NCBI GenBank assembly: GCA_007116075.1 | Contig: SKJE01000011.1 | Location: 1-48,080, forward strand | DNA from: Spirochaetia bacterium | GTDB lineage: Bacteria > Spirochaetota > Spirochaetia > PWKH01 | DNA length: 48,080 bases | Reading direction: 5' to 3' | Part shown: piece after piece, positions 1 through 10,892 of the stretch | Layout: each line of letters starts with the position of its first letter | Numbering within the stretch: position 1 is the stretch's first letter | The notes under the pieces: model-generated | Told to the model about the DNA's origin: nothing | What the model saw: the letters and a program-made list of their open reading frames with translations, nothing else | Databases searched by the model: none | Program-made: the position numbers and the translations under genes

Positions 1-146
1 AGCTGATCAGCAGGGAGTCCGGTCAATCCTTGGAAAAGGTTGAACATGATACGGACCGGGACTGCTGGCTGGATGCGAAGGAGGCGGTTTCCTATGGACT
101 GATCTCCCGGATAACAGAACATAAGGAAGATCTTTCATCGAAATAG
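1..146 (+). CDS. clpP: ATP-dependent Clp protease proteolytic subunit, C-terminal fragment (5' end outside window)
   Basis: Manual translation from position 3 gives LISRESGQSLEKVEHDTDRDCWLDAKEAVSYGLISRI..., stop TAG 144-146. This matches the ClpP C-terminal DTDRDxW/F..AxEAxxYGLI motif. Confidence 0.85.
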   Translation, partial: LISRESGQSLEKVEHDTDRDCWLDAKEAVSYGLISRITEHKEDLSSK

Positions 147-161
147 GGTACATCGGTACCT

Positions 162-215
162 TCCCTTGTCACATATGTTCTTGACTGGTATAGTTGTGGA
201 AAATGTGACAGGGGA
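162..215 (+). promoter_or_regulatory. Sigma70-type promoter flanked by a 13-bp inverted repeat (candidate operator)
   Basis: TTGTCA (166-171), 17-bp spacer, TG-n-TATAGT (189-194). Repeat arms TCCCTTGTCACAT (162-174) and ATGTGACAGGGGA (203-215), one mismatch. Confidence 0.6.
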
Positions 216-221
216 TGAGGT

Positions 222-2150
222 ATGGCAGTACACAACTCACCGAATATTATTCGCGATATAGCCCGACGCTACTACATTCAGGGCCAGCAGCAGTCTGAAA
301 TAGCCGCATATTACGCAATCTCCCGAAGCCAGGTTTCCAAGCTGCTCAAGAAGGGCCGTGAGGAGGGACTGGTCCATATCGAGATTCCCGACCACACTCC
401 CTCCGGGGAACTGCTTCGCTCCCGTTTGATGAAGACCTTTTCCCTGAAGGATGTCCTGATTGTGCCATCGGGCAGCAGGGACGCCGGAAAAGAAGGGACT
501 GCACTCCGGGTTGGGAACCAGGCGGCTGCATATCTGAAGGAGCTGCTGATGGAGGGGATGCGCATCGGGATTGAATGGGGAACATCCCTGTATCATATGC
601 TTGAACAGCTTCATGTGGACAAGCCCTATGATGTTGAGGTGTATCAGATGCACGGGGTGATCGAGTCCCCCTCCTGTGACATCGAAGGGTTTGTCCTTGC
701 CCGGAAACTTGCAAGAATACTCGGAGGCCGGGTTCGGCTGATCCAGGCTCCCATGGTGGTGGCTTCACAGCAGCTGCGGGATATGCTCGTCACGGAACAG
801 AAAATAGCAGATACCCTGGAGGGAGCTCGTAGTGCGGATGCTGTATTTATCGGTATCGGCTCCAATGAGACCGGTGAGAACGAGCTGTGCAGGGCAGGGT
901 ATCTCTCAAAAGAGGAATCCCTGGCTGTACGTGACCGGGGCGGAACGGCCACCATCAGCGGCTGGTTTCTTCACGAATCAGGACAGATCATGGAGGGAGC
1001 TCCCAACAATCGGATGATCGGGGTACACCCTGATAAGTTCAGGGATATCCCCCTGGTGGTTGCTGTGGCTTACGGTGAGTATAAACAGCGATCTATCCTC
1101 AGCGCCCTCAAGGGAGGGTACATAGATGTGCTGGCAACCGATGAGCAGACTGCCCGGGGAATTCTGGATGAACTGGAACAGCAGAGCCGCCTGCAGGATG
1201 TACCCAGGGAGGAGCTGCTGCTTATGTATGAGCGGATGCTTCGTTCCAGGCTGCTTGACCAGCGGTTGGAGGAGCTGTTTTCCGAGAAAGAGCTCTACGG
1301 GACGACCCACCTCTCCATCGGGCAGGAGGCGTCAAGCGTCGTTCCCGGATGCGCCCTGGAGCCGCAGGACTACCTCTTCGGGACTCATCGCGGCCACGGT
1401 CATGCTGTAGGCAAGGGGCTGGATGCGGCATCCTTCATGGCTGAAATGTTCGGCAAGGTAACCGGCTGTGCGGGCGGACGGGGAGGATCCATGCATCTGG
1501 TGGATGTCTCAAAGGGCATTATGGGTATGAACGGTGTTGTTGCCGGAGTCCTCCCGGTAGCGGTAGGGGCTGCTTTATCAGCCCGGATGCTTATGGAGGA
1601 CAGGGTTTCGGCGGTGTTTCTCGGGGACGGGGCAACAAATGAGGGAGCCTTCCATGAGGCGATGAACCTTGCTGCCGTCTGGAGCCTGCCGGTGCTGTTT
1701 CTCTGTGAAAACAACCTCTATGGAATGTCAGTGCACATTGAGCGGAGCATGAAAGTGGAGAATCTGGCCATCAGGGCGTCAGCCTACGGTATGCCCGGGT
1801 GGACTATTGACGGCAACAATGCCCTGGAGGTGTTTCATACCGTTAAGAGAGCCAGAAAGTATGCACGGGAACATGGCCCTCTGTTCCTGGTGATGAACAC
1901 CTACCGTATATCGGGGCATTCGAAAAGTGACGTCAACGCCTACCGTACCAGTGAGGAAATTGATGCATGGAGCAGACGTTGCCCGATTGCACGGTTCCGT
2001 TCGCAGCTGCTCTCCGGGAGGATCTGCAGTCCTGAAGATATTCTGCAGATTGACCAGAGGGAGGCGCAGCATATACGGGATGCAGAACAACTGGCGCGCC
2101 GGAGTCCGGATCCGGACCCTGAAGATGTAATGGAGTGTATATATTCATGA
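222..2150 (+). CDS. Fusion of a SorC/DeoR/LsrR-family sugar-binding regulator (aa ~1-315) and a TPP-dependent 2-oxoacid/acetoin dehydrogenase E1 alpha subunit (aa ~325-642)
   Basis: N-terminal ARRYYIQGQQQSEIA...SRSQVSKLL HTH plus sugar-binding domain (IEWGTS, IGIGS, LATDEQTA). C-terminal HLSIGQEA, THRGHGH, GRGGSMH, GDGATNEG...CENN TPP motif and YRISGHS. Confidence 0.9.
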   Translation: MAVHNSPNIIRDIARRYYIQGQQQSEIAAYYAISRSQVSKLLKKGREEGLVHIEIPDHTPSGELLRSRLMKTFSLKDVLIVPSGSRDAGKEGTALRVGNQAAAYLKELLMEGMRIGIEWGTSLYHMLEQLHVDKPYDVEVYQMHGVIESPSCDIEGFVLARKLARILGGRVRLIQAPMVVASQQLRDMLVTEQKIADTLEGARSADAVFIGIGSNETGENELCRAGYLSKEESLAVRDRGGTATISGWFLHESGQIMEGAPNNRMIGVHPDKFRDIPLVVAVAYGEYKQRSILSALKGGYIDVLATDEQTARGILDELEQQSRLQDVPREELLLMYERMLRSRLLDQRLEELFSEKELYGTTHLSIGQEASSVVPGCALEPQDYLFGTHRGHGHAVGKGLDAASFMAEMFGKVTGCAGGRGGSMHLVDVSKGIMGMNGVVAGVLPVAVGAALSARMLMEDRVSAVFLGDGATNEGAFHEAMNLAAVWSLPVLFLCENNLYGMSVHIERSMKVENLAIRASAYGMPGWTIDGNNALEVFHTVKRARKYAREHGPLFLVMNTYRISGHSKSDVNAYRTSEEIDAWSRRCPIARFRSQLLSGRICSPEDILQIDQREAQHIRDAEQLARRSPDPDPEDVMECIYS

Positions 2151-3133
2151 GACAGATAAGCTGCAGCGAGGCAGTCAGGGAAGCCATTGCCCAGGAGATG
2201 GAGCAGGACGGCCGGGTGTTCCTCATGGGTGAGGATGTCGGGGTATATGGGGGATCCTACGGGGTGCTCAAGGGACTGGTGGAGCGCTTCGGGAGTGAGC
2301 GGATCAGGGACACCCCGATATCAGAGGCGGGCTTTGTGGGTGCGGCAGTCGGGGCGGCCATGACAGGAACCCGGCCGATCGTTGAGATCATGTACAGTGA
2401 TTTTCTGCTGACAGCCATGGACCAGATTGTCAACCAGGCGGCAAAGATGCAGTACATGTTCCACGGCGCCTTCCAGCTGCCTCTGGTCATCAGGGCTCCC
2501 TCCGGATCAGGAACCGGAGCTGCAGCACAGCATTCCCAGAGCCTCGAGGCGCTCTTTACCCACATCCCGGGATTGAAGGTGGTTGCTCCCTCAACGCCCT
2601 ATGATCTCAAGGGGCTGCTTATATCCTCTATCAGGGATACTAACCCGGTGCTCTTTTTGGAGCAGAAGACCCTCTATCCGTGTATGGGGCCGGTCCCCAG
2701 GGAGTTCTATGAAATACCCCTTGGTAAAGCCAAGGTCTGCAGGGAGGGTGATGATGTTGCCGTAATAACCTATGGGAGGATGGTGCACACCGCTCTTGAT
2801 GCTGCCCGAATACTTGAAGAGCGCCATGGCATTTCTGTCCATGTACTGGACCTGAGGAGTCTGGTGCCCCTTGATGAAGAAGCCGTAATTTCTGCAGCCC
2901 TCAGGACCAGGCGGGTAGTGATCCTCCATGAGGCAGCCCGGAACGGCGGGTTCGGCGGTGAACTCGCCGCCAGGATTGCCGGACATGGGGCTGTATCATC
3001 CCTGGAGGCCCCGATCCTGCGGATCTGCGGACGGGATGTACCGATTCCCTTCTCCCGCACCCTTGAGGAGGCGGCGGTCCCCTCAGTTGAGGAGGTAATC
3101 TCCAGGACTGCCGAACTCTGTCGGCATGCCTGA
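2147..3133 (+). CDS. TPP-dependent dehydrogenase E1 beta subunit (AcoB/PdhB-like)
   Basis: GEDVG, DTPISE, AAQHSQS and DLRSLVPLD motifs. ATG 2147 overlaps the upstream stop (ATGA), with GGAG upstream. Confidence 0.92.
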   Translation: MRQISCSEAVREAIAQEMEQDGRVFLMGEDVGVYGGSYGVLKGLVERFGSERIRDTPISEAGFVGAAVGAAMTGTRPIVEIMYSDFLLTAMDQIVNQAAKMQYMFHGAFQLPLVIRAPSGSGTGAAAQHSQSLEALFTHIPGLKVVAPSTPYDLKGLLISSIRDTNPVLFLEQKTLYPCMGPVPREFYEIPLGKAKVCREGDDVAVITYGRMVHTALDAARILEERHGISVHVLDLRSLVPLDEEAVISAALRTRRVVILHEAARNGGFGGELAARIAGHGAVSSLEAPILRICGRDVPIPFSRTLEEAAVPSVEEVISRTAELCRHA

Positions 3134-3139
3134 GGGAGG

Positions 3140-3523
3140 CTATCTCCGCGCAACCGCCTCTATCTCAACCATCACTCCCAGCGGTAGTGCCGCCACTTGG
3201 ACGCACGCCCTGGCGGGGTAGGGTTCTTCGAAGTATTCTGCATAGATCCCGTTTACGGCGGGGAAGTCCTTCATGTCGGTAATATAGATATTCACCTTTA
3301 CTGCATGCTGCAGTGAAGACCCCGCCGCTTCAAGTACTGCCTTCAGGTTCTTCAGGCACTGCCGGGTCTGCGCCTCTATGGAGTTTCCATCCACAGTCCC
3401 TGTTTCCGGGTTGAGGGGGATCTGGCCGGAGCAGAACACGAGGTCACCGGTGATTACTGCCTGTGAATAGGGCCCGACAGCTGCCGGAGCATTACTGGTT
3501 GATACAATTTCTTTCTTCATCAT
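3140..3523 (-). CDS. ridA: RidA/YjgF/UK114 reactive intermediate deaminase
   Basis: APAAVGPYSQAV, SGQIPL, YPARACVQVAALP, VEIEA motifs. Confidence 0.93.
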   Translation of the reverse strand: MMKKEIVSTSNAPAAVGPYSQAVITGDLVFCSGQIPLNPETGTVDGNSIEAQTRQCLKNLKAVLEAAGSSLQHAVKVNIYITDMKDFPAVNGIYAEYFEEPYPARACVQVAALPLGVMVEIEAVARR

Positions 3524-3619
3524 TATCTCCTTGCGTGTGATTATATCAAAGAAGATGAGGGGAGTATATCAATCAGGGGGCTCTGACCGGTGTTGCTTAG
3601 GGAGTAAGGCGGTGCAGGT

Positions 3620-4624
3620 ATGAAGCGAACGGCAGTGCTCCTATTGTGTCTGGCAGTGTTCGGCTGCAGCCAGTGGTATGGCTCATATGAACAGGAGGGC
3701 ATGAGTATTATCACCTATAATGTACAGGATCTCTTCGATGCCCGGTACGACGGAGGAGAATACCCGGAATATGATCCCCGGGAAGGCCTTTGGGATGCTC
3801 CGGGATACCATCTGCGTCTCTCCCGGCTGCGGGATGTCATTGCCCGTTCAGGGTATCCCGATGTGGTGCTCCTCCAGGAGATTGAGAAACCGGAGATTCT
3901 CGATGACCTGGTCTCGGGTTATCTCTACGGCCGGGGATATCATTACCGGGCGGGAACCAGCACCGGGACATCAGCTATTGAACTGGGGGTCATCACCAGG
4001 TTTCCTATCACCCAAGTGCTTCTCCATGAGGGACAGTTTCTGGACCATGTTTCCCCGAGGCCTACCATGGAAGTTGTCCTCGATACTCCCTGGGGTCACA
4101 TTCATGTATTCAATGCCCACTGGAAGTCCAAGATAGGAGGTGCTGAAGAGACAGAACCTGCCCGACGGGCTTGTGCTGAGGCGCTTGCGAGCAGGATTGC
4201 CGATATCAGGATGGAACATGAGGATGTCTACATCATCGCAGGAGGGGACTTCAATACAACCCCCTTTGAGACTGGCTTATATGACCTGGCGCTGCTTCAA
4301 TGGGATGAGGATGTAAGGGAGGGCAGCCTGTATATCACAGCGGATGGATCCATGGTGGATGCCTCGAAGGGAGTTCTCTATTCTCCCTGGCTTCAGGAGG
4401 GAGGACTGAACCGTCCCGGCACCTATGTCTATCGGGGGGAATGGGAGGCAATTGATCATCTACTGTTCTGCAACAATTTTTTTACCGGGAAATCACCGGA
4501 TTTCCAACAGGCCTTTGTTATTGAAGAGGGGCTGCTGGATGAATGGGGAAGTCCGGCCGGATGGAACCTCAACAGCCGGGAGGGGTACTCGGACCACCTC
4601 CCCCTCGGGGCTGTGGCCCGGTAG
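3620..4624 (+). CDS. Endonuclease/exonuclease/phosphatase-family lipoprotein (extracellular nuclease-like)
   Basis: Lipobox-like AVFGC; TYNV, LQEIE, HWKSK, GDFN, IDH and YSDHLP EEP motifs. Confidence 0.85.
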   Translation: MKRTAVLLLCLAVFGCSQWYGSYEQEGMSIITYNVQDLFDARYDGGEYPEYDPREGLWDAPGYHLRLSRLRDVIARSGYPDVVLLQEIEKPEILDDLVSGYLYGRGYHYRAGTSTGTSAIELGVITRFPITQVLLHEGQFLDHVSPRPTMEVVLDTPWGHIHVFNAHWKSKIGGAEETEPARRACAEALASRIADIRMEHEDVYIIAGGDFNTTPFETGLYDLALLQWDEDVREGSLYITADGSMVDASKGVLYSPWLQEGGLNRPGTYVYRGEWEAIDHLLFCNNFFTGKSPDFQQAFVIEEGLLDEWGSPAGWNLNSREGYSDHLPLGAVAR

Positions 4625-4628
4625 AACC

Positions 4629-5291
4629 TCACTGTATAAGATCTTCCTCAGATATCAAGCTGTTTTCTGCAATATTTATTTCATAGAAAATATGCTCTAG
4701 CTCCAGGGCAATATTCACATTTCTGATGATCACTGGAGGCCGTTCATGGGTACGGGTTATCCTCAGTTCAATGGGAGAAAAATTAAGGATACCCTTAATT
4801 CCGGCTTCCTTCAGCTGGTTGAACACCTCAGTAGATGCCTGCTCATTTACGGCGATGATGGCTACCCGAATATCTTCTTCCTTGATAAATGATTCAAGCT
4901 TCTCCATGGGATAGATCGGTATCGGACACTGGTCGTCATCACAGACTGACGGGTTGATATCGAATCCCGCAGTTAAATGGATGCCGTCCATGGCGAACCC
5001 GCTGTACCGCATGAGGGCACCGCCGATTCTCCCGCATCCTACCACAACTGCCCGCTGGGGTTTATCCTTACCGAGAATTGTGTTGAGCTCTGAAATAAGG
5101 CTGCTGATATTATATCCGCCCCGTTTCTGCCCGGAAATTTTTAGTATCGTGAAATCCTTTCGGACAACTGCCCCTTTCACACCGATAGCGTCCCCAAGGT
5201 TGTTGGCAAAAACCCGTTCTAGTCCCAGAGCCTTCAGTTTATGCAAGATACGGTAGTATTTTGTAAGTCGTAAGATCATTTCTTTATGCAT
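4629..5291 (-). CDS. rex: Redox-sensing transcriptional repressor Rex
   Basis: RLTKYYRIL...VRKDF...GGY winged helix, Rossmann VGCGRIGGAL, GILNFSP. Divergent from an NADH-linked hydrogenase operon. Confidence 0.9.
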   Translation of the reverse strand: MHKEMILRLTKYYRILHKLKALGLERVFANNLGDAIGVKGAVVRKDFTILKISGQKRGGYNISSLISELNTILGKDKPQRAVVVGCGRIGGALMRYSGFAMDGIHLTAGFDINPSVCDDDQCPIPIYPMEKLESFIKEEDIRVAIIAVNEQASTEVFNQLKEAGIKGILNFSPIELRITRTHERPPVIIRNVNIALELEHIFYEINIAENSLISEEDLIQ

Positions 5292-5693
5292 AAAAATACT
5301 TATTCCCCCGTTTATATGATGAATTTCTTTTTAAATCATACAGCAATGCACTAAAAAAATCAATTACCTATTTTAAAATAATTAAATAGATTATTATTGA
5401 AAGGAATATAATCTAATTGACATTCTTGAGTTTTCGCAGACGTTGACAATATGAAGATAATTATTCTATATGATCCAATGAGATATATTAATACTGCCCC
5501 GGAAGAAACGTGTTCTGGGCAATTTTCTTCACAGCAGCTATTATAATCTTAGATCATATCATGTTAAGACCTGCGCCCAAGTTCAAAACTGACCGCTGGT
5601 GTTCCTTGTTATTGGATGTGCATGATACGGTAGTGTTTTTATAATGAATAATTTCATTTCTTTATGCATAAAAGGCAAAAAAATCCCGTTTAT
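5276..5693. repeat. Direct repeat pair: exact 20-mer TCATTTCTTTATGCATAAAA at 5276-5295 and 5654-5673, each followed 11 nt later by CCCGTTTAT (5307-5315, 5685-5693)
   Basis: Read directly from the sequence. Contains the perfect 12-bp palindrome TTTATGCATAAA. The first copy overlaps the rex start codon. Confidence 0.85.
5640..5659. promoter_or_regulatory. Candidate Rex operator overlapping a TATAAT hexamer
   Basis: TAATGAA-TAAT-TTCATTT (5642-5659) keeps the TGAA-N4-TTCA core of the Rex box TTGTGAA-N4-TTCACAA. TATAAT lies at 5640-5645. Confidence 0.5.
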
Positions 5694-5774
5694 GCGTAAT
5701 TAAGGTTTTAAAATAATGAAAAAACACAATAAAAAAACATTTTTCTAATTTAAAATAAAAAAAAGGGATTATTA

Positions 5775-5803
5775 TTGAAAATTAATTTAATCTAAAGTAC
5801 TAT
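5775..5803 (+). promoter_or_regulatory. Candidate sigma70 promoter of the hydrogenase operon
   Basis: TTGAAA (5775-5780), 17 bp, TACTAT (5798-5803), with an A-rich UP-like region upstream. The region is AT-rich, so chance matches are possible. Confidence 0.5.
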
Positions 5804-5844
5804 GATTTACAAATACAAAAGATAAAGGTTGTGTCGGAGGTTTC

Positions 5845-6321
5845 ATGGCTGAACAAAAAGAAAAATTCACCTTTTCTGATGAATTGGTGTCGTACATCAA
5901 GGAGTGGAAACAAAAAAGGGGTAACCTGATCATGGTCCTGCACCGAGTGCAACAGGAATTCAGGTACGTTCCAAAGGAAGCAGCTGAACGGGTTGCTGAA
6001 ATGCTGGATGTTCCCCTGGCAAAGATCTATGGTGTGCTGACCTTTTATCATTATTTCAAGATCAAAGAGCCTGGTGAGTACAACATCCAAGTGTGCATGG
6101 GTACTGCATGTTATCTCAAGGGCGGTGACGGACTCGTTGAGGAACTGGAGAATGTTCTTGGAGTAAGTGAACAGGAAGTAACCGAAGACGGAAGATTTTC
6201 CTTTGAATCGGTTCGTTGTGTCGGATGCTGCGGTCTTGCGCCGGTATTGGTTGTCGGGGAAGAGGTCTACGGGAAGGTTACCAAGGACCAGATTCCAGGA
6301 ATCATTGCTAAATATCAGTAA
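5845..6321 (+). CDS. hndA: [FeFe]-hydrogenase NuoE-like [2Fe-2S] subunit (HndA/HydC)
   Basis: VCMGTACYLKG and VRCVGCCGLAP motifs; GGAGG RBS. Confidence 0.9.
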   Translation: MAEQKEKFTFSDELVSYIKEWKQKRGNLIMVLHRVQQEFRYVPKEAAERVAEMLDVPLAKIYGVLTFYHYFKIKEPGEYNIQVCMGTACYLKGGDGLVEELENVLGVSEQEVTEDGRFSFESVRCVGCCGLAPVLVVGEEVYGKVTKDQIPGIIAKYQ

Positions 6322-6345
6322 GTGACAGTGTAGAGAAGGCTTGTG

Positions 6346-6912
6346 ATGCATAGAACCATCTGTGATTTCCTGCTTGATATCATCCAGAATTCCCTCGAAG
6401 CTGATTCCTCGACGGTTATTGTTCATGTACAGCAGGATGAATCCAGATGTGAGATGACTGTAGCTGATGACGGGTGCGGCATGGACCCGGGAGAGCTGAA
6501 GGCGGCCGGGAACCCCTTTTATACACGGGAGGGAAAGCATTCCCACCGTAAGGTGGGTCTTGGGATTCCCTTCCTGGCCCAGACAGCTTCCATGACCGAC
6601 GGCATCTTCGATATCCAGTCAAAAAAGGATTTTGGTACATCGGTACGTTGGGTGCTGCCCTTGGACCATATGGACACTCCCCCCCTGGGGGATCTGTCCG
6701 GAACGTTCCTGTCAGCCCTTACCTATCCGGGTGAATTTGAACTGACGATTCTGAGGAGCGCTTCATCCAAGGGAAGACAGGAGTCATATGAGCTTCAGCG
6801 GTCTGAACTGGCAGAAGCCCTGGGAGATCTGGAGTCAAGCGGATCCCTGGCACTGCTGCGGAAGTATATAACATCACAGGAGCAGGAACTGCACAAGCTG
6901 CTGAATGGATAA
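6346..6912 (+). CDS. Stand-alone HATPase_c (histidine kinase-like ATPase) protein within the hydrogenase operon
   Basis: DIIQNSLEA (N box), DDGCGM (G1), PFYT (F), VGLGIP (G2), GT. No HisKA domain. Confidence 0.8.
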   Translation: MHRTICDFLLDIIQNSLEADSSTVIVHVQQDESRCEMTVADDGCGMDPGELKAAGNPFYTREGKHSHRKVGLGIPFLAQTASMTDGIFDIQSKKDFGTSVRWVLPLDHMDTPPLGDLSGTFLSALTYPGEFELTILRSASSKGRQESYELQRSELAEALGDLESSGSLALLRKYITSQEQELHKLLNG

Positions 6913-6937
6913 GCACATTGCGAAAAGGAGGCCAGAA

Positions 6938-7339
6938 ATGGCAAAAATGACCCTACAGGAATTGAGGGCACTGCGTGAGCAGAAAAGAAAAGAAATGAAA
7001 AAGCGGGATCTATCTGATAAAACCATGCAGGTTGTTATCGGGATGGGGACCTGCGGCATTGCCGCCGGTGCGAAGGATACCCTGAATGCATTCATCCAGG
7101 AATTGGAGGAGCAGCAGGTCAGTGATGTCATCGTGACTCAGACCGGATGTATGGGCCTCTGTTATGTTGAGCCTACTATTGAGGTGATTGTTCCCGGTAT
7201 GCCGAATATAATCTACGGCAAGGTGGATCCGGAGGTTGCAAAAAACATTGTACGGGATCATCTGATGAATAAGAAAATGGTCAGCGACCATATATTTGAT
7301 CGGCCCGCTGCCGATATCATCGACCAGGGGAGGAAATAA
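6938..7339 (+). CDS. hndB: Thioredoxin-like [2Fe-2S] ferredoxin subunit (HndB/HydD)
   Basis: GMGTCGIAAGA and TGCMGLCYVEP motifs; AGGAGG RBS before ATG 6938. Confidence 0.85.
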   Translation: MAKMTLQELRALREQKRKEMKKRDLSDKTMQVVIGMGTCGIAAGAKDTLNAFIQELEEQQVSDVIVTQTGCMGLCYVEPTIEVIVPGMPNIIYGKVDPEVAKNIVRDHLMNKKMVSDHIFDRPAADIIDQGRK

Positions 7340-9126
7340 TGGCGTTAACGAATTATATTCTTGTCTGCGGTGGTACCGGATGCGAGTCCGCCAAGGCTGA
7401 CCAGATTTACAAGAACCTCCTGACTGCCGCCCAGGCTTCGGGAGTAGGTGATACTGTGCAGATCCTGAAGACCGGATGTTTCGGTTTCTGTGAACAGGGA
7501 CCTATTGTCAAGATCCTCCCGGAGGACTCCTTCTATGTCCAGGTGAAGCCCGAGGACGCAGAGGAACTCATCAAGGAGCATATTGTCAAAGGGCGGGAAG
7601 TCAAACGGCTGCTCTACGATAAAAGTGAAAGCAAGAAACATGCGAGGGTAGAGGATATTCAGTTCTACCAGAAGCAGTTCCGGATAGTCCTGCGAAACTG
7701 CGGGTTTATCAACCCGGAAGATATCGACGAATATATCGCCAGGGAAGGATATGTTGCCCTGGAGCGGGTGCTCGGCGATATGAGTCCGGATGACGTTATC
7801 CAGGAGCTGAAGAAGTCCGGTCTCAAGGGGCGGGGCGGAGCAGGATTTCCCACCTGGCTTAAATGGAACTTCACGAAGGATGTGGAAGACGATGAAAAGT
7901 ATATCGTCTGTAATGCTGATGAGGGAGATCCCGGTGCATACATGGACCGGTCAACCCTGGAGGGAGATCCCCACTCAGTTCTTGAGGCGATGACCATTGC
8001 GGGATACACCGTTGGCGCCCAGATGGGTTATATCTACATCCGGGCAGAGTATCCTCTGGCAATCAACCGTCTCAAGGCAGCAATGCAGCAGGCCAGGGAC
8101 TATGGACTGCTGGGAGAGGATATCCTGGGAACTGATTTCAGCTTCGATATAGAGATCAGGCTGGGAGCCGGTGCATTTGTCTGCGGTGAAGAAACCGCCC
8201 TGCTGGCTTCCCTCGAGGGAAACCGGGGTATGCCGAGGCCGAGACCTCCCTTCCCGGCCGTCAAGGGACTCTGGAATAAGCCGACGGTCATCAACAACGT
8301 TGAGACCTGGGCGAATATTCCGGTAATTATCCTCAAGGGCGGCGACTGGTTTGCCCAGATTGGTACAGAGGACTCCAAGGGTACCAAGGTATTTGCTCTG
8401 ACCGGTAAGATCAGGAACTCCGGTCTTGTGGAAGTACCCATGGGAACCACCCTCAGGGAAATTATCTATGATATCGGCGGAGGCATTGCCAATGACAAGG
8501 AATTCAAGGCAGTGCAGACTGGCGGTCCTTCGGGAGGAGTGATTACCAAGGAATACTTGGACACCCCAATTGACTACAAGCATTTGCAGGAACTCGGTTC
8601 CATGATGGGTTCCGGCGGTATGATCGTCATGGATGAGGATGACTGTATTGTGGATGTCACCAAGTTCTACCTCGGGTTCACCGTTGACGAGTCCTGCGGT
8701 AAGTGCTCACCATGCCGGGTCGGAGGAAGAACGCTCTACAATATGCTGGACAAGATTACCAAGGGCGAGGGAGAGATTGAGGACATCGATAAGATGCACC
8801 AGATCGGCAAGGCGATGAAAAAGGCCTCCCTGTGCGGCCTTGGACAGACAGCACCGAACCCGATTCTCTCAACCCTGAGGTACTTTGAGAAGGAATACCT
8901 GGCTCATATCAAGGAGAAGAAGTGTCCTTCGGGTAAATGTAAGGAACTGATTTCCTACTACATCCTTGCAGATAAGTGTATCGGCTGTATGGCATGTGCC
9001 CGGAAGTGTCCTGTCGCGGCTATAACCGGGGAGCGGAGGAAAATCCACCGTATTGACCAGGACATCTGTATCAAGTGCGGTATCTGCTACGAGACATGTA
9101 AGTTTGACGCAATCTACGTCGGATGA
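7339..9126 (+). CDS. hndC: NuoF-like FMN/NAD(H)-binding hydrogenase subunit (HndC/HydB)
   Basis: GRGGAGFPT, NADEGDPG, GAGAFVCGEET, GGPSGG, ESCGKCSPCRVG; N-terminal 2Fe-2S and C-terminal 2x[4Fe-4S] motifs. Confidence 0.93.
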   Translation: MALTNYILVCGGTGCESAKADQIYKNLLTAAQASGVGDTVQILKTGCFGFCEQGPIVKILPEDSFYVQVKPEDAEELIKEHIVKGREVKRLLYDKSESKKHARVEDIQFYQKQFRIVLRNCGFINPEDIDEYIAREGYVALERVLGDMSPDDVIQELKKSGLKGRGGAGFPTWLKWNFTKDVEDDEKYIVCNADEGDPGAYMDRSTLEGDPHSVLEAMTIAGYTVGAQMGYIYIRAEYPLAINRLKAAMQQARDYGLLGEDILGTDFSFDIEIRLGAGAFVCGEETALLASLEGNRGMPRPRPPFPAVKGLWNKPTVINNVETWANIPVIILKGGDWFAQIGTEDSKGTKVFALTGKIRNSGLVEVPMGTTLREIIYDIGGGIANDKEFKAVQTGGPSGGVITKEYLDTPIDYKHLQELGSMMGSGGMIVMDEDDCIVDVTKFYLGFTVDESCGKCSPCRVGGRTLYNMLDKITKGEGEIEDIDKMHQIGKAMKKASLCGLGQTAPNPILSTLRYFEKEYLAHIKEKKCPSGKCKELISYYILADKCIGCMACARKCPVAAITGERRKIHRIDQDICIKCGICYETCKFDAIYVG

Positions 9127-9140
9127 TAAGGAGGAATACT

Positions 9141-10892
9141 TTGAAGACCGTGAAAATGAAAGTAAACGGCAAGTCCATCCAGGTACCCGCTAGTTATTCG
9201 GTCCTGCAGGCTGCCAAGGAAGTAAATATAAACATTCCCACCCTCTGCTACCACCCGGACCTGCCCGCCTGGGCAGCCTGCGGTATCTGTGTAGTTAAGC
9301 TGGAGAATTCACCAAAGATGGTACGTGCCTGTGCTACTCCGGTTGCAGCCGGCATGTCAATCATTACCCATGATGCCGAACTCCACCAGATCCGCAAGAC
9401 AGTCATCGAGCTGATTCTTTCCACACACCCAAGTTCATGCCTCACCTGCGGACGAAACGGATCCTGTGAGCTTCAGAACCTGGCAGCCAACTTCGGTGTC
9501 CGGGAACAGCCCTATGAGATTCGCCTCAGGGATTTTGAGCCCGACACGTCAACTACATCTATCGTGATGAACCGGGAAAAGTGCATCAGCTGCGGGCGCT
9601 GCGCCATGGTCTGCCAGTCCCTCCAGGGAGTTTGGGCCCTGGAATTTGTTGGGCGCGGTGAGCATACTGTCATTGCCCCTGCCGGCGAAGTGCCCCTGAA
9701 CGACAGTCCCTGCATTAAGTGCGGCCAGTGTTCAGCCCATTGTCCAGTCGGTGCCATCTTTGAGAAGGATGAGACCAGAGAGTTTATGGAAGCTACCCGG
9801 GACAAGGACAAGCATGTTGTGGTTCAAATTGCTCCTGCGGTGAGAGTAGCCATCGGTGAAGCCTTCGATATGGAACCCGGGACAATCAGCACCGGACGGA
9901 CCTATGCGGCTCTGCGGGCTCTTGGTGCGGACACAGTCTTTGATACCAATTTCTCAGCTGACCTCACCATTATCGAGGAGGGCAGTGAGCTAGTTCACCG
10001 GATAACCACTGGTAAGGGGGAGCTTCCCCAGATTACCAGCTGCTGTCCTGCCTGGACCGACTACATGGAGAAATACTACCCCGATATGATTCCCAATTTC
10101 TCCACTGCAAAGTCGCCCATGATGATGCAGGGAGCCCTGACCAAGACCTACTATGCACAGAATGTCGGTGTTGATCCCAAGAACATCTATTCAGTAGCGA
10201 TCATGCCCTGTACTGCTAAGAAGTTCGAGAAGGAACGGGACGAGAATATGTACGCTTCGGGATATGCCGATGTTGATCTGGTGCTTACCACCCGGGAGCT
10301 TACCCGGCTTATCAGGTCTGCCGGTATTGACTTTGTCAACCTTGGAGAAGAAGAGGCAGACAGCCCCATCGGAGCATACAGCGGTGCAGGAACCATCTTC
10401 GGAAACACCGGTGGTGTGATGGAGGCGGCTGTACGTACTGCTTATAAGCTGGTCACCGATGAGGAACTTGGAGATGTGAACGTCACCGCTGTCCGCGGTA
10501 TGGACGGTGTCAGGAAGGGGTCAGTAGACTTTAAGGGAACGGAGATCAAGGTTGCCGTCGCCCATGGGATGGCTAATGTGAGTACCCTTCTTGAGGAAAT
10601 CAGGGAAGCCCGGAATAATAAGCAGGAGCCTCCCTATCACTTTATTGAAGTAATGGCGTGCCGGGGCGGATGTATTGCCGGTGGTGGGCAGCCCTATGCG
10701 ACTACCGATGAGGTGAGAAACAAGCGTATTGCCGGTATCTACAAGGATGACGAGCAGAGCGATATCCGTTGTTCCCATCAGAACCCGGATATCCAGAAGC
10801 TCTATGATGATTTCCTGGGTAAACCCCTGGGCAAGAAGTCCCATGATCTGCTTCATACAGGCTATCATGAGAGACCATTGTACAAGAAATAG
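9141..10892 (+). CDS. hndD: [FeFe]-hydrogenase catalytic subunit, group A (HndD/HydA)
   Basis: H-cluster motifs TSCCPAW, MPCTAKKFE, EVMACRGGCIAGGGQP; N-terminal Fe-S domains. TTG start at 9141 after AGGAGG. Confidence 0.95.
   Translation: MKTVKMKVNGKSIQVPASYSVLQAAKEVNINIPTLCYHPDLPAWAACGICVVKLENSPKMVRACATPVAAGMSIITHDAELHQIRKTVIELILSTHPSSCLTCGRNGSCELQNLAANFGVREQPYEIRLRDFEPDTSTTSIVMNREKCISCGRCAMVCQSLQGVWALEFVGRGEHTVIAPAGEVPLNDSPCIKCGQCSAHCPVGAIFEKDETREFMEATRDKDKHVVVQIAPAVRVAIGEAFDMEPGTISTGRTYAALRALGADTVFDTNFSADLTIIEEGSELVHRITTGKGELPQITSCCPAWTDYMEKYYPDMIPNFSTAKSPMMMQGALTKTYYAQNVGVDPKNIYSVAIMPCTAKKFEKERDENMYASGYADVDLVLTTRELTRLIRSAGIDFVNLGEEEADSPIGAYSGAGTIFGNTGGVMEAAVRTAYKLVTDEELGDVNVTAVRGMDGVRKGSVDFKGTEIKVAVAHGMANVSTLLEEIREARNNKQEPPYHFIEVMACRGGCIAGGGQPYATTDEVRNKRIAGIYKDDEQSDIRCSHQNPDIQKLYDDFLGKPLGKKSHDLLHTGYHERPLYKK

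Follow-up and report, generated by a model that had tools for sequence, protein, structure and literature searches.

A putative SorC/DeoR-type autorepressor fused in frame to a pyruvate-dehydrogenase-type E1-alpha subunit in uncultured Spirochaetia

Repressors of the SorC/DeoR subfamily consist of an N-terminal homeodomain-like helix-turn-helix (HTH) of 50-60 residues followed by an effector domain of about 250 residues (PF04198/IPR007324), and SorC repressors bind as tetramers to two-part operators of 39-45 bp at promoters, from which a phosphorylated sugar releases them. One family member, CggR of Bacillus subtilis, is an autorepressor encoded by the first gene of the gapA operon, with glycolytic sugar phosphates as its effectors (all from PMC11229326). 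Here we describe a gene in which a repressor of this family continues in frame into a metabolic enzyme subunit. The gene occupies positions 222..2150 (forward strand, as for all features of the window unless noted) of a 48,080-nucleotide stretch of DNA, called the window below (contig SKJE01000011.1, positions 1 to 48,080, of the Spirochaetia bacterium assembly GCA_007116075.1; genome G000), and from an ATG start, with no internal stop, it encodes 642 amino acids comprising an HTH, a SorC effector domain, and the alpha subunit of a thiamine pyrophosphate (TPP)-dependent E1. The best explanation that we can offer, and one that we consider probable, is an active E1 that carries a tethered autorepressor: a complete SorC/DeoR-type repressor joined to E1-alpha, with E1-beta coupled to it.

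The first 315 residues align along their whole length with Escherichia coli LsrR (4go1, 118 bits) and B. subtilis DeoR (8r7y, 102 bits). DeoR and LsrR end after the effector domain, whereas the chain described here runs on for 327 residues past it into E1-alpha, so the fusion is a SorC-family module within a larger protein and not a typical two-domain SorC/DeoR member. CggR is likewise a separate protein, with a winged HTH; the fusion has a DeoR-type DNA-binding domain, and one reading frame covers regulator and first enzyme alike. In Pfam searches, PF04198 (Sugar-bind) matches residues 65-315 (6e-57, profile positions 9-256 of 257) and PF00676 (E1_dh) matches residues 339-634 (3.4e-71, profile positions 4-300 of 300). 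The top NCBIfam models are pyruvate dehydrogenase (PDH) E1-alpha, DeoR, and LsrR, none of which reaches its equivalog cut-off (168.5 against 420 for DeoR and 134.8 against 486 for LsrR).

Evidence that the reading frame is genuine comes from a protein collection, genomes, and metagenome contigs. Among the best 120 matches listed from a collection of 5.8 billion proteins, 12 (P0001-P0012, 627-662 amino acids) contain both domains, matching 94-100% of the query at 45-100% identity, and the other 108 match the E1 half only. A screen of 401 genomes of the class (E <= 1e-120) gave nine matches, eight of which carry the fused frame without a stop (G000-G004, G010, G047, and G095, from two families; the frame in G002 is open up to the contig end, where the match breaks off). 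Contigs from three sequencing runs with soda-lake, salt-lake, and sediment metagenome labels span 1150-1230 with 0 gaps. One (X1 record 8, possibly from the sample from which the window itself was assembled) covers 372-3200, and another (X2 record 13) covers 1089-1285 with 0 differences. A third (X3 record 21, 644-1308) represents a strain about 98% identical, in which 14 of 14 substitutions fall at third positions of the frame that starts at 222, four of them in junction codons. The first-pass annotation of this DNA had named a stop or frameshift at the junction, or relatives that all have two separate genes, as grounds for doubting the fusion; neither was found, over 1150-1230 in the independent contigs or among the genomes of the class. 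These sequences show a genuine, conserved fusion whose junction, too, is under purifying selection, and the agreement of protein matches, genome frames, and independent contigs excludes an assembly or sequencing artefact or a junction frameshift.

The same annotation had raised a second possibility, that free E1-alpha is also made from an internal start. Its description of the site holds: GGAGGAG occupies 1208-1214, and 9 nucleotides beyond it an ATG in the same frame begins at 1224. A reading in which the locus yields two products in this way, or in which the fusion is an assembly artefact, seems quite unlikely to us. Beyond the exclusion of the artefact, the internal ATG fares poorly as a feature, being Met in seven of the 12 fusions and Ile or Val in five, and a GGAG-type motif lies 9-12 nucleotides upstream in only three of six loci; the strain about 98% identical alters two of the seven Shine-Dalgarno-like bases, and the GGAG bases code for the conserved Arg/Glu-Glu of the N-terminal helix of E1-alpha. 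A minor free E1-alpha species may nonetheless be made.

The architecture appears to be rare. When a profile of the 12 fusions was run against 1.84 billion representatives at 50% identity, P0007 alone among the matches listed aligned over positions 4-647, and the other 149 listed matched either the E1 half (145) or the SorC half (4). Fusions of E1-alpha to other regulators were sought among 12 long E1-alpha-containing proteins of that listing. Lipoyl, TSCPD, ketoacyl-synthase, or E1-beta domains make up the additional regions of these proteins, and neither an HTH nor PF04198 is present in any of them. When the SorC half was used to search proteins of 561-2000 amino acids, only 11 of the same fusions came back, which is weak evidence. 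The pairing of a SorC-type repressor with E1-alpha seems to be undescribed, and the first-pass annotation knew of no described example: the open-access literature searched contains no description of it, and one paper mentions both Pfam accessions. No RNA library was listed as containing the stretch; a single metatranscriptome contig covers 100-264 only, and libraries of this sort can contain DNA. As a separate observation, contigs of two runs carry a 1-nucleotide deletion at 350 and a 1-nucleotide insertion at 353/354, in the HTH-coding part; in this strain variant the second change restores the frame, with one or two codons altered.

The repressor half retains its family motifs. Conservation was judged over the 12 fusion proteins, and the first-pass annotation's statement that both domains are full length, with intact motifs and in one frame, is borne out by the Pfam coverage and by the motifs that these proteins share. 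The HTH of the SorC/DeoR subfamily (residues 11-55, 252..386) aligns over residues 12-55 with the DNA-binding domains of LsrR (4go1) and DeoR (8r7y), its helices are placed at 7-19, 24-31, and 35-47 in an AlphaFold2 model, and its SRSxxSKxLK motif is invariant in 12 of 12 fusions. In the effector domain (residues 65-315, 414..1166), which in this family binds sugar phosphates, the motifs WGTSLY, QxHG, QAPM, SGWF, AxGxxK, and TD are invariant, and the pocket-region motifs WGT, AxGxxK, and TD are common to the fusion, DeoR, and LsrR. The effector is probably not deoxyribose-5-phosphate, since the fusion has His (QMHG) at the position of the Lys in the QLKGG motif of DeoR, a residue that we take to be the one forming the covalent bond.

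These features bear on a reading in which the SorC module does not bind DNA at all and serves purely to sense sugar phosphates and adjust E1 activity allosterically. Allostery commonly arises when an enzyme is fused to a domain that binds a ligand, and the Pfam HTH matches, at residues 13-51, are weak and fall under their cut-offs. Against it, mean column identity in the fusion alignment is as high in the HTH (0.71) as in the catalytic E1-alpha domain (0.69), with 0.68 in the effector domain and 0.37 in the junction; the invariant HTH motif and the promoter block described next also oppose it, as does R35 of the fusion HTH, which aligns with DeoR R39, a residue reported to contact a base (PMC11229326). 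We rate the chance that this reading is correct as slim.

Upstream of the fused gene in all eight loci lies a block of about 50 bp, at 162..215 in the window, that is conserved with fixed spacing in an eight-locus alignment (consensus ..TTGTcaCAtATGttcc....TGgTA..ATtGt...AaaTGTGAt) and has 23 invariant columns among six of the loci. It contains a sigma-70-type promoter at 166..194 (TTGTCA-17-TATAGT, with TG before the -10; 10 of 12 matches in a promoter scan), whose hexamers line up in all eight fused loci. Operator-like site 1 (TTGTCACATATGTTCTT; conserved form TTGTCACATATGTTC) spans 166..182 and overlaps the -35. It scores 23.9 bits with a position weight matrix (PWM), the best score genome-wide, followed by 19.2 bits for a site within an open reading frame (C142), and its 14-mer occurs once in the 2.2-Mb genome with at most one mismatch allowed. 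Its core, ACATATGTTC, recurs without change, over 10 nucleotides, in the right half of the DeoR operator of B. subtilis (PMC11229326). Operator-like site 2 (AAAATGTGACA core; AAATGTGAY), at 197..215 just past the -10, keeps a constant offset of 35 nucleotides from site 1 in all eight loci, and in the window a 13-nucleotide inverted repeat (162-174/203-215, 92% complementary) extends both sites. DeoR and LsrR operators are similar, overlapping the promoter with two halves over about 40 bp, and two sites 35 bp apart across a promoter would be consistent with a SorC tetramer on a two-part operator.

The genome-wide PWM scan gave the fusion's own promoter only, with no sign of a wider regulon, and an Rfam search of 1-3700 found no riboswitch or other known RNA at E <= 0.01. 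One further PWM hit, on contig C50, was rejected as a regulon member: it is a CRP/FNR-like palindrome (TGTCACCTATGTTACA, G000:C50:2677-2693, locus L046) that lies about 75 nucleotides upstream of a prismane/hybrid-cluster-protein (hcp) gene and that surfaced solely through its likeness to site 1. Rex was also considered as the binder of the block, as the gene at 4629-5291 has domains typical of Rex, and was rejected; no match to the Rex consensus (with up to three mismatches) occurs near 160-220, and the window holds two matches elsewhere against 1.48 expected.

The enzyme half (residues 335-642, 1224..2147) appears from its sequence to be the alpha subunit of a heterotetrameric, TPP-dependent E1 of the pyruvate- or acetoin-dehydrogenase type, a typing by family and not by substrate. 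It matches human PDH E1-alpha with 202 bits. The TPP/Mg-binding motif GDG...NN (residues 468-498, 1623..1715) aligns with GDGAANQG...CENN of the human protein, and the active-site loop YRISGHSKSD (residues 561-570, 1902..1931) aligns with YRYHGHSMSD. Residues G468, D469, G470, N497, and N498 of the former and Y561, R562, G565, H566, S567, K568, S569, and D570 of the latter are invariant in the 12 fusions, within a wider set of invariant motifs that comprises GTTHLxxGQEASS, GTHRGHG, GGSMH, GDG...CENN, and TYRxxGHSKSD.

Downstream lies a translationally coupled E1-beta gene (2147..3133; PF02779 and PF02780). The open reading frame list starts it at GTG 2135, and its frame also has an ATG, at 2147, that overlaps the TGA of the fusion (ATGA). 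The start of E1-beta overlaps the stop of the fusion in five of five loci, as ATGA in four of these. The product passes the cut-off of NF006667 (382.5 bits against 321), and all 11 sequences compared keep the catalytic Glu and His, E60 and H129. We take E60 to be the cofactor-activating Glu of the family. The locus thus shares with the known heterotetrameric (alpha2beta2) E1 enzymes of pyruvate, branched-chain, and acetoin dehydrogenases the E1_dh domain, the TPP motif, the active-site loop, and an adjacent, coupled E1-beta gene, and differs from them in its N-terminal regulator and in an operon that lacks E2 and E3.

The AlphaFold2 model of the whole fusion (pLDDT 91.2, pTM 0.78) resembles known structures half by half. 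Foldseek aligned the SorC half with LsrR, DeoR, and SorC (TMt 0.73-0.77; 0.77 for full-length DNA-bound DeoR, 8r7y_B) and the E1 half with 1ni4_A (TMt 0.81, root-mean-square deviation 1.6 over 311 columns), and it found no solved chain that spans both halves (TMq at most 0.47). The junction (residues 316-334, 1167..1223), which overlaps the linker cited by the first-pass annotation (GILDELEQQSRLQDVPREELL, residues 313-333), varies in sequence and in length, with an insertion of up to six residues in one subclade of fusions. In the model it is formed by a helix at 308-325, a 3-residue break, and a helix at 329-354, all with pLDDT above 90, so that the junction is variable in sequence yet not predicted to be disordered.

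The data show a one-component regulator that is complete, that has kept a conserved effector domain, and whose promoter carries an operator-like block. This points first to ordinary SorC-type autorepression controlled by a sugar phosphate, with the enzyme tethered to the repressor. In the mechanism that we propose, the fusion and E1-beta would assemble as (SorC-alpha)2-beta2, and the SorC modules would occupy both sites, 35 bp apart, one over the -35 and the other over the transcription start predicted near 200-202, in the way that SorC tetramers occupy operators of 39-45 bp. Occupancy of the sites would repress the fusion/E1-beta operon, and a phosphorylated sugar in the SorC pocket would free the DNA. 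The concentration of E1 would then feed back directly on E1 synthesis, because every repressor molecule would also be an enzyme subunit. The E1 part would be catalytically active, using E2 and E3 encoded elsewhere or none.

Several observations weigh against this proposal. The assignment of the operator to the fusion HTH is indirect, and another factor could bind the block; the alternative binders that have been excluded are those tied to the Rex consensus and to the CRP/FNR-like site elsewhere in the genome. With TIGR03182, the model for PDH E1-alpha, the fusion scores 318.4 bits, under the cut-off of 393.85. None of the seven fused loci with downstream sequence has E2 or E3 in the operon. 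In G001, G003, and G004 (85%, 89%, and 55% complete) the E2 genes found are only beside a different E1, of about 823 amino acids, or at a contig start. Lastly, the two modules may be locked in a fixed geometry, to judge from a modelled junction of two helices with a 3-residue break and from the pTM of 0.78.

Some of these points could be read as signs that the E1-alpha/beta pair does not catalyse and serves a transcription factor as its sensor domain, like the pseudo-enzymes that have been proposed in some families of regulators: the operon is without E2 or E3, and E1-alpha stays under its NCBIfam equivalog cut-off. We regard this as very unlikely. Both subunits keep their cofactor and active-site motifs without change across sequences of 45-100% identity, the translational coupling holds in all five loci, and no full-length E1-alpha of the heterotetramer type other than the fused one was found in G001, G003, or G004.

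The first-pass annotation had inferred a trigger enzyme, with DNA binding controlled by complex assembly or substrate state; in this reading the E1 part is what mainly governs DNA binding. Free (SorC-alpha)2-beta2 would repress its own operon, docking on the E2 core or binding of TPP or substrate would lift the complex off the DNA, and E1 synthesis would track the free E2 sites. The absence of E2 and E3 from all seven fused operons, together with their retention in a paralogous unfused operon, would suit this scheme, as would the presence of E2 genes on three other contigs of the window's genome, including E2s with peripheral-subunit-binding domains; the short, confidently helical junction in the predicted structure would permit mechanical coupling of the modules. 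The SorC effector domain, however, keeps its own pocket motifs as an input independent of the enzyme, so a separate ligand would suffice for regulation and the scheme becomes unnecessary. We hold it to be unlikely, though by no means negligible. For its sharpest form, in which a DNA-binding E1 subunit gauges the assembly of the complex and docking on the E2 core pulls it off its own promoter, we see a rather small chance. If true, E1 would be made to match the empty E2 sites exactly, with a glycolytic sugar phosphate setting the gain, and no earlier case would then be known in which a transcription factor, itself a subunit, controls the stoichiometry of a multienzyme complex.

Our preferred explanation, the sugar-phosphate-responsive autorepressor tethered to active E1, would place the protein beside a small set of known regulator-enzyme fusions. 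In PutA, BirA, NadR, and RbkR a DNA-binding domain and a metabolic enzyme also share one polypeptide, and autoregulation is likely to be a further common trait. Regulator-enzyme fusions are few, and the characterised ones, called trigger enzymes in PMC5397151, consist of a bare DNA-binding domain on an enzyme of vitamin/cofactor or amino-acid metabolism, with the enzyme acting as the sensor. The present fusion differs in joining a whole ligand-sensing repressor, effector domain included, to one subunit of a two-subunit enzyme of central-carbon type, a PDH-type E1. Each part is ordinary; the architecture is unusual, and its distribution is narrow, in uncultured spirochaetes of salt and soda lakes. 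Made up of two genes behind a single promoter with a predicted operator, the locus offers a compact natural system for asking how the tethering of a repressor to its target enzyme alters feedback.

The origin of the fusion can be traced in part through unfused relatives. A SorC gene lies within or beside an E1a-E1b(-E2-E3) operon in seven genomes, namely G016, G005, G010, G025, G024, G019, and G236. Gene order is E1a-E1b-E2-E3-SorC in G016, G005, and G010:C67, E1a-E1b-E2-SorC in G025, SorC-E1a-E1b-E2 in G024, and SorC-E1a(partial)-E1b in G019. In G236 (G236:C610, locus L043:922-2865, reverse strand) SorC, TGA, 21 nucleotides with a Shine-Dalgarno sequence of their own (GGAGGA), and the ATG of E1a followed by E1b all stand in one frame. 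Compared with the fused loci, the unfused operons of G016, G005, G010:C67, G025, and G236 encode the same two protein families as separate genes; the four seen to their end have E2, three of them E3 as well, and the G236 contig stops within E1-beta. A shorter, related operator core, ACAWWTGT, which occurs 25 times in 264 kb when the sites upstream of E1a are included, is found upstream of E1a in four of five unfused SorC-containing operons and in four of five fused operons. As distant relatives hold a separate SorC gene in E1a-E1b-E2-E3 operons, it is probable that the fusion joined a regulator to its own target. In this sense the fusion acts as a Rosetta stone: it supports the connection between SorC-type sugar-phosphate sensors and PDH-like operons in spirochaetes that gene neighbourhoods show throughout the class.

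Phylogenetic trees separate the two arrangements. The E1-alpha modules taken from 13 fused proteins group in a single clade with bootstrap/SH-aLRT support of 100/100, distinct from the E1-alpha of unfused operons of the same class, and so do the SorC modules (100/100, in a tree without UNF_G024op and UNF_G019op, which have long branches). As both halves each form one such clade, the data fit a single fusion event followed by vertical descent; the main subgroups appear in both trees, and the deepest split in the SorC tree lacks resolution. Loss of a stop codon like that of G236 could give a fusion of the same order. G236 itself was rejected as the direct unfused ancestor, its E1-alpha and SorC proteins lying outside the fused clades, among those of unfused operons.

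Fused and unfused systems occur together in G010, and the window's genome probably has an unfused system too, with an operon that scores as PDH-like. Its parts seem to be divided over two contig ends: C151 (L040) carries E1a-E1b-E2 and runs off the contig end, and C90 (L039) begins inside a SorC gene, followed by lipoate-protein-ligase-like and radical-SAM (lipoyl-synthase-like) genes. Three side observations concern the unfused loci. In G236 a sugar kinase of the FGGY family (XylB/LsrK-like) is divergently oriented upstream of sorC. In G019:C64 (L035:7224-8144) a possibly broken E1-alpha gene stands beside a 408-amino-acid SorC gene; it aligns with only 185 of the 300 positions of its profile, and the E1-beta frame overlaps it. 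In G010 an element of about 138 nucleotides ends 25-40 nucleotides upstream of the promoters of both E1 operons, fused and unfused (L032:60-136 in G010:C67 and the contig end of L028 in G010:C38, both contigs breaking within it), and Rfam identifies it as the 3' end of a group II intron (domains V-VI; 51.5 bits, gathering score 40).

Beyond E1-beta, four of the seven fused loci (G003, G010, G047, and G095) encode an uncharacterised protein of about 730-770 amino acids that combines a major facilitator superfamily (MFS) transporter with HEAT repeats (L026:3987-6242; L028:8892-11087, reverse strand; L044:7250-9430; L045:942-3131, reverse strand). It follows E1-beta after a gap of 30 nucleotides in G095 and has no counterpart in the window. 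Look-alikes in the Atlas are unnamed MFS/HEAT clusters, mostly from Spirochaetota, and give no clue to a substrate. Gene order further downstream is shared among relatives. The window holds, over 3140-10892, RidA (reverse strand), an endonuclease/exonuclease/phosphatase protein, and the Rex-type regulator (reverse strand), with domains scanned as far as Rex and size-matched open reading frames coming next; in relatives Rex is followed by a cluster of NuoE-like, HATPase, and NuoF-like genes, to which G010 adds an Fe-only hydrogenase. This downstream order is also kept in the second family that bears the fusion.

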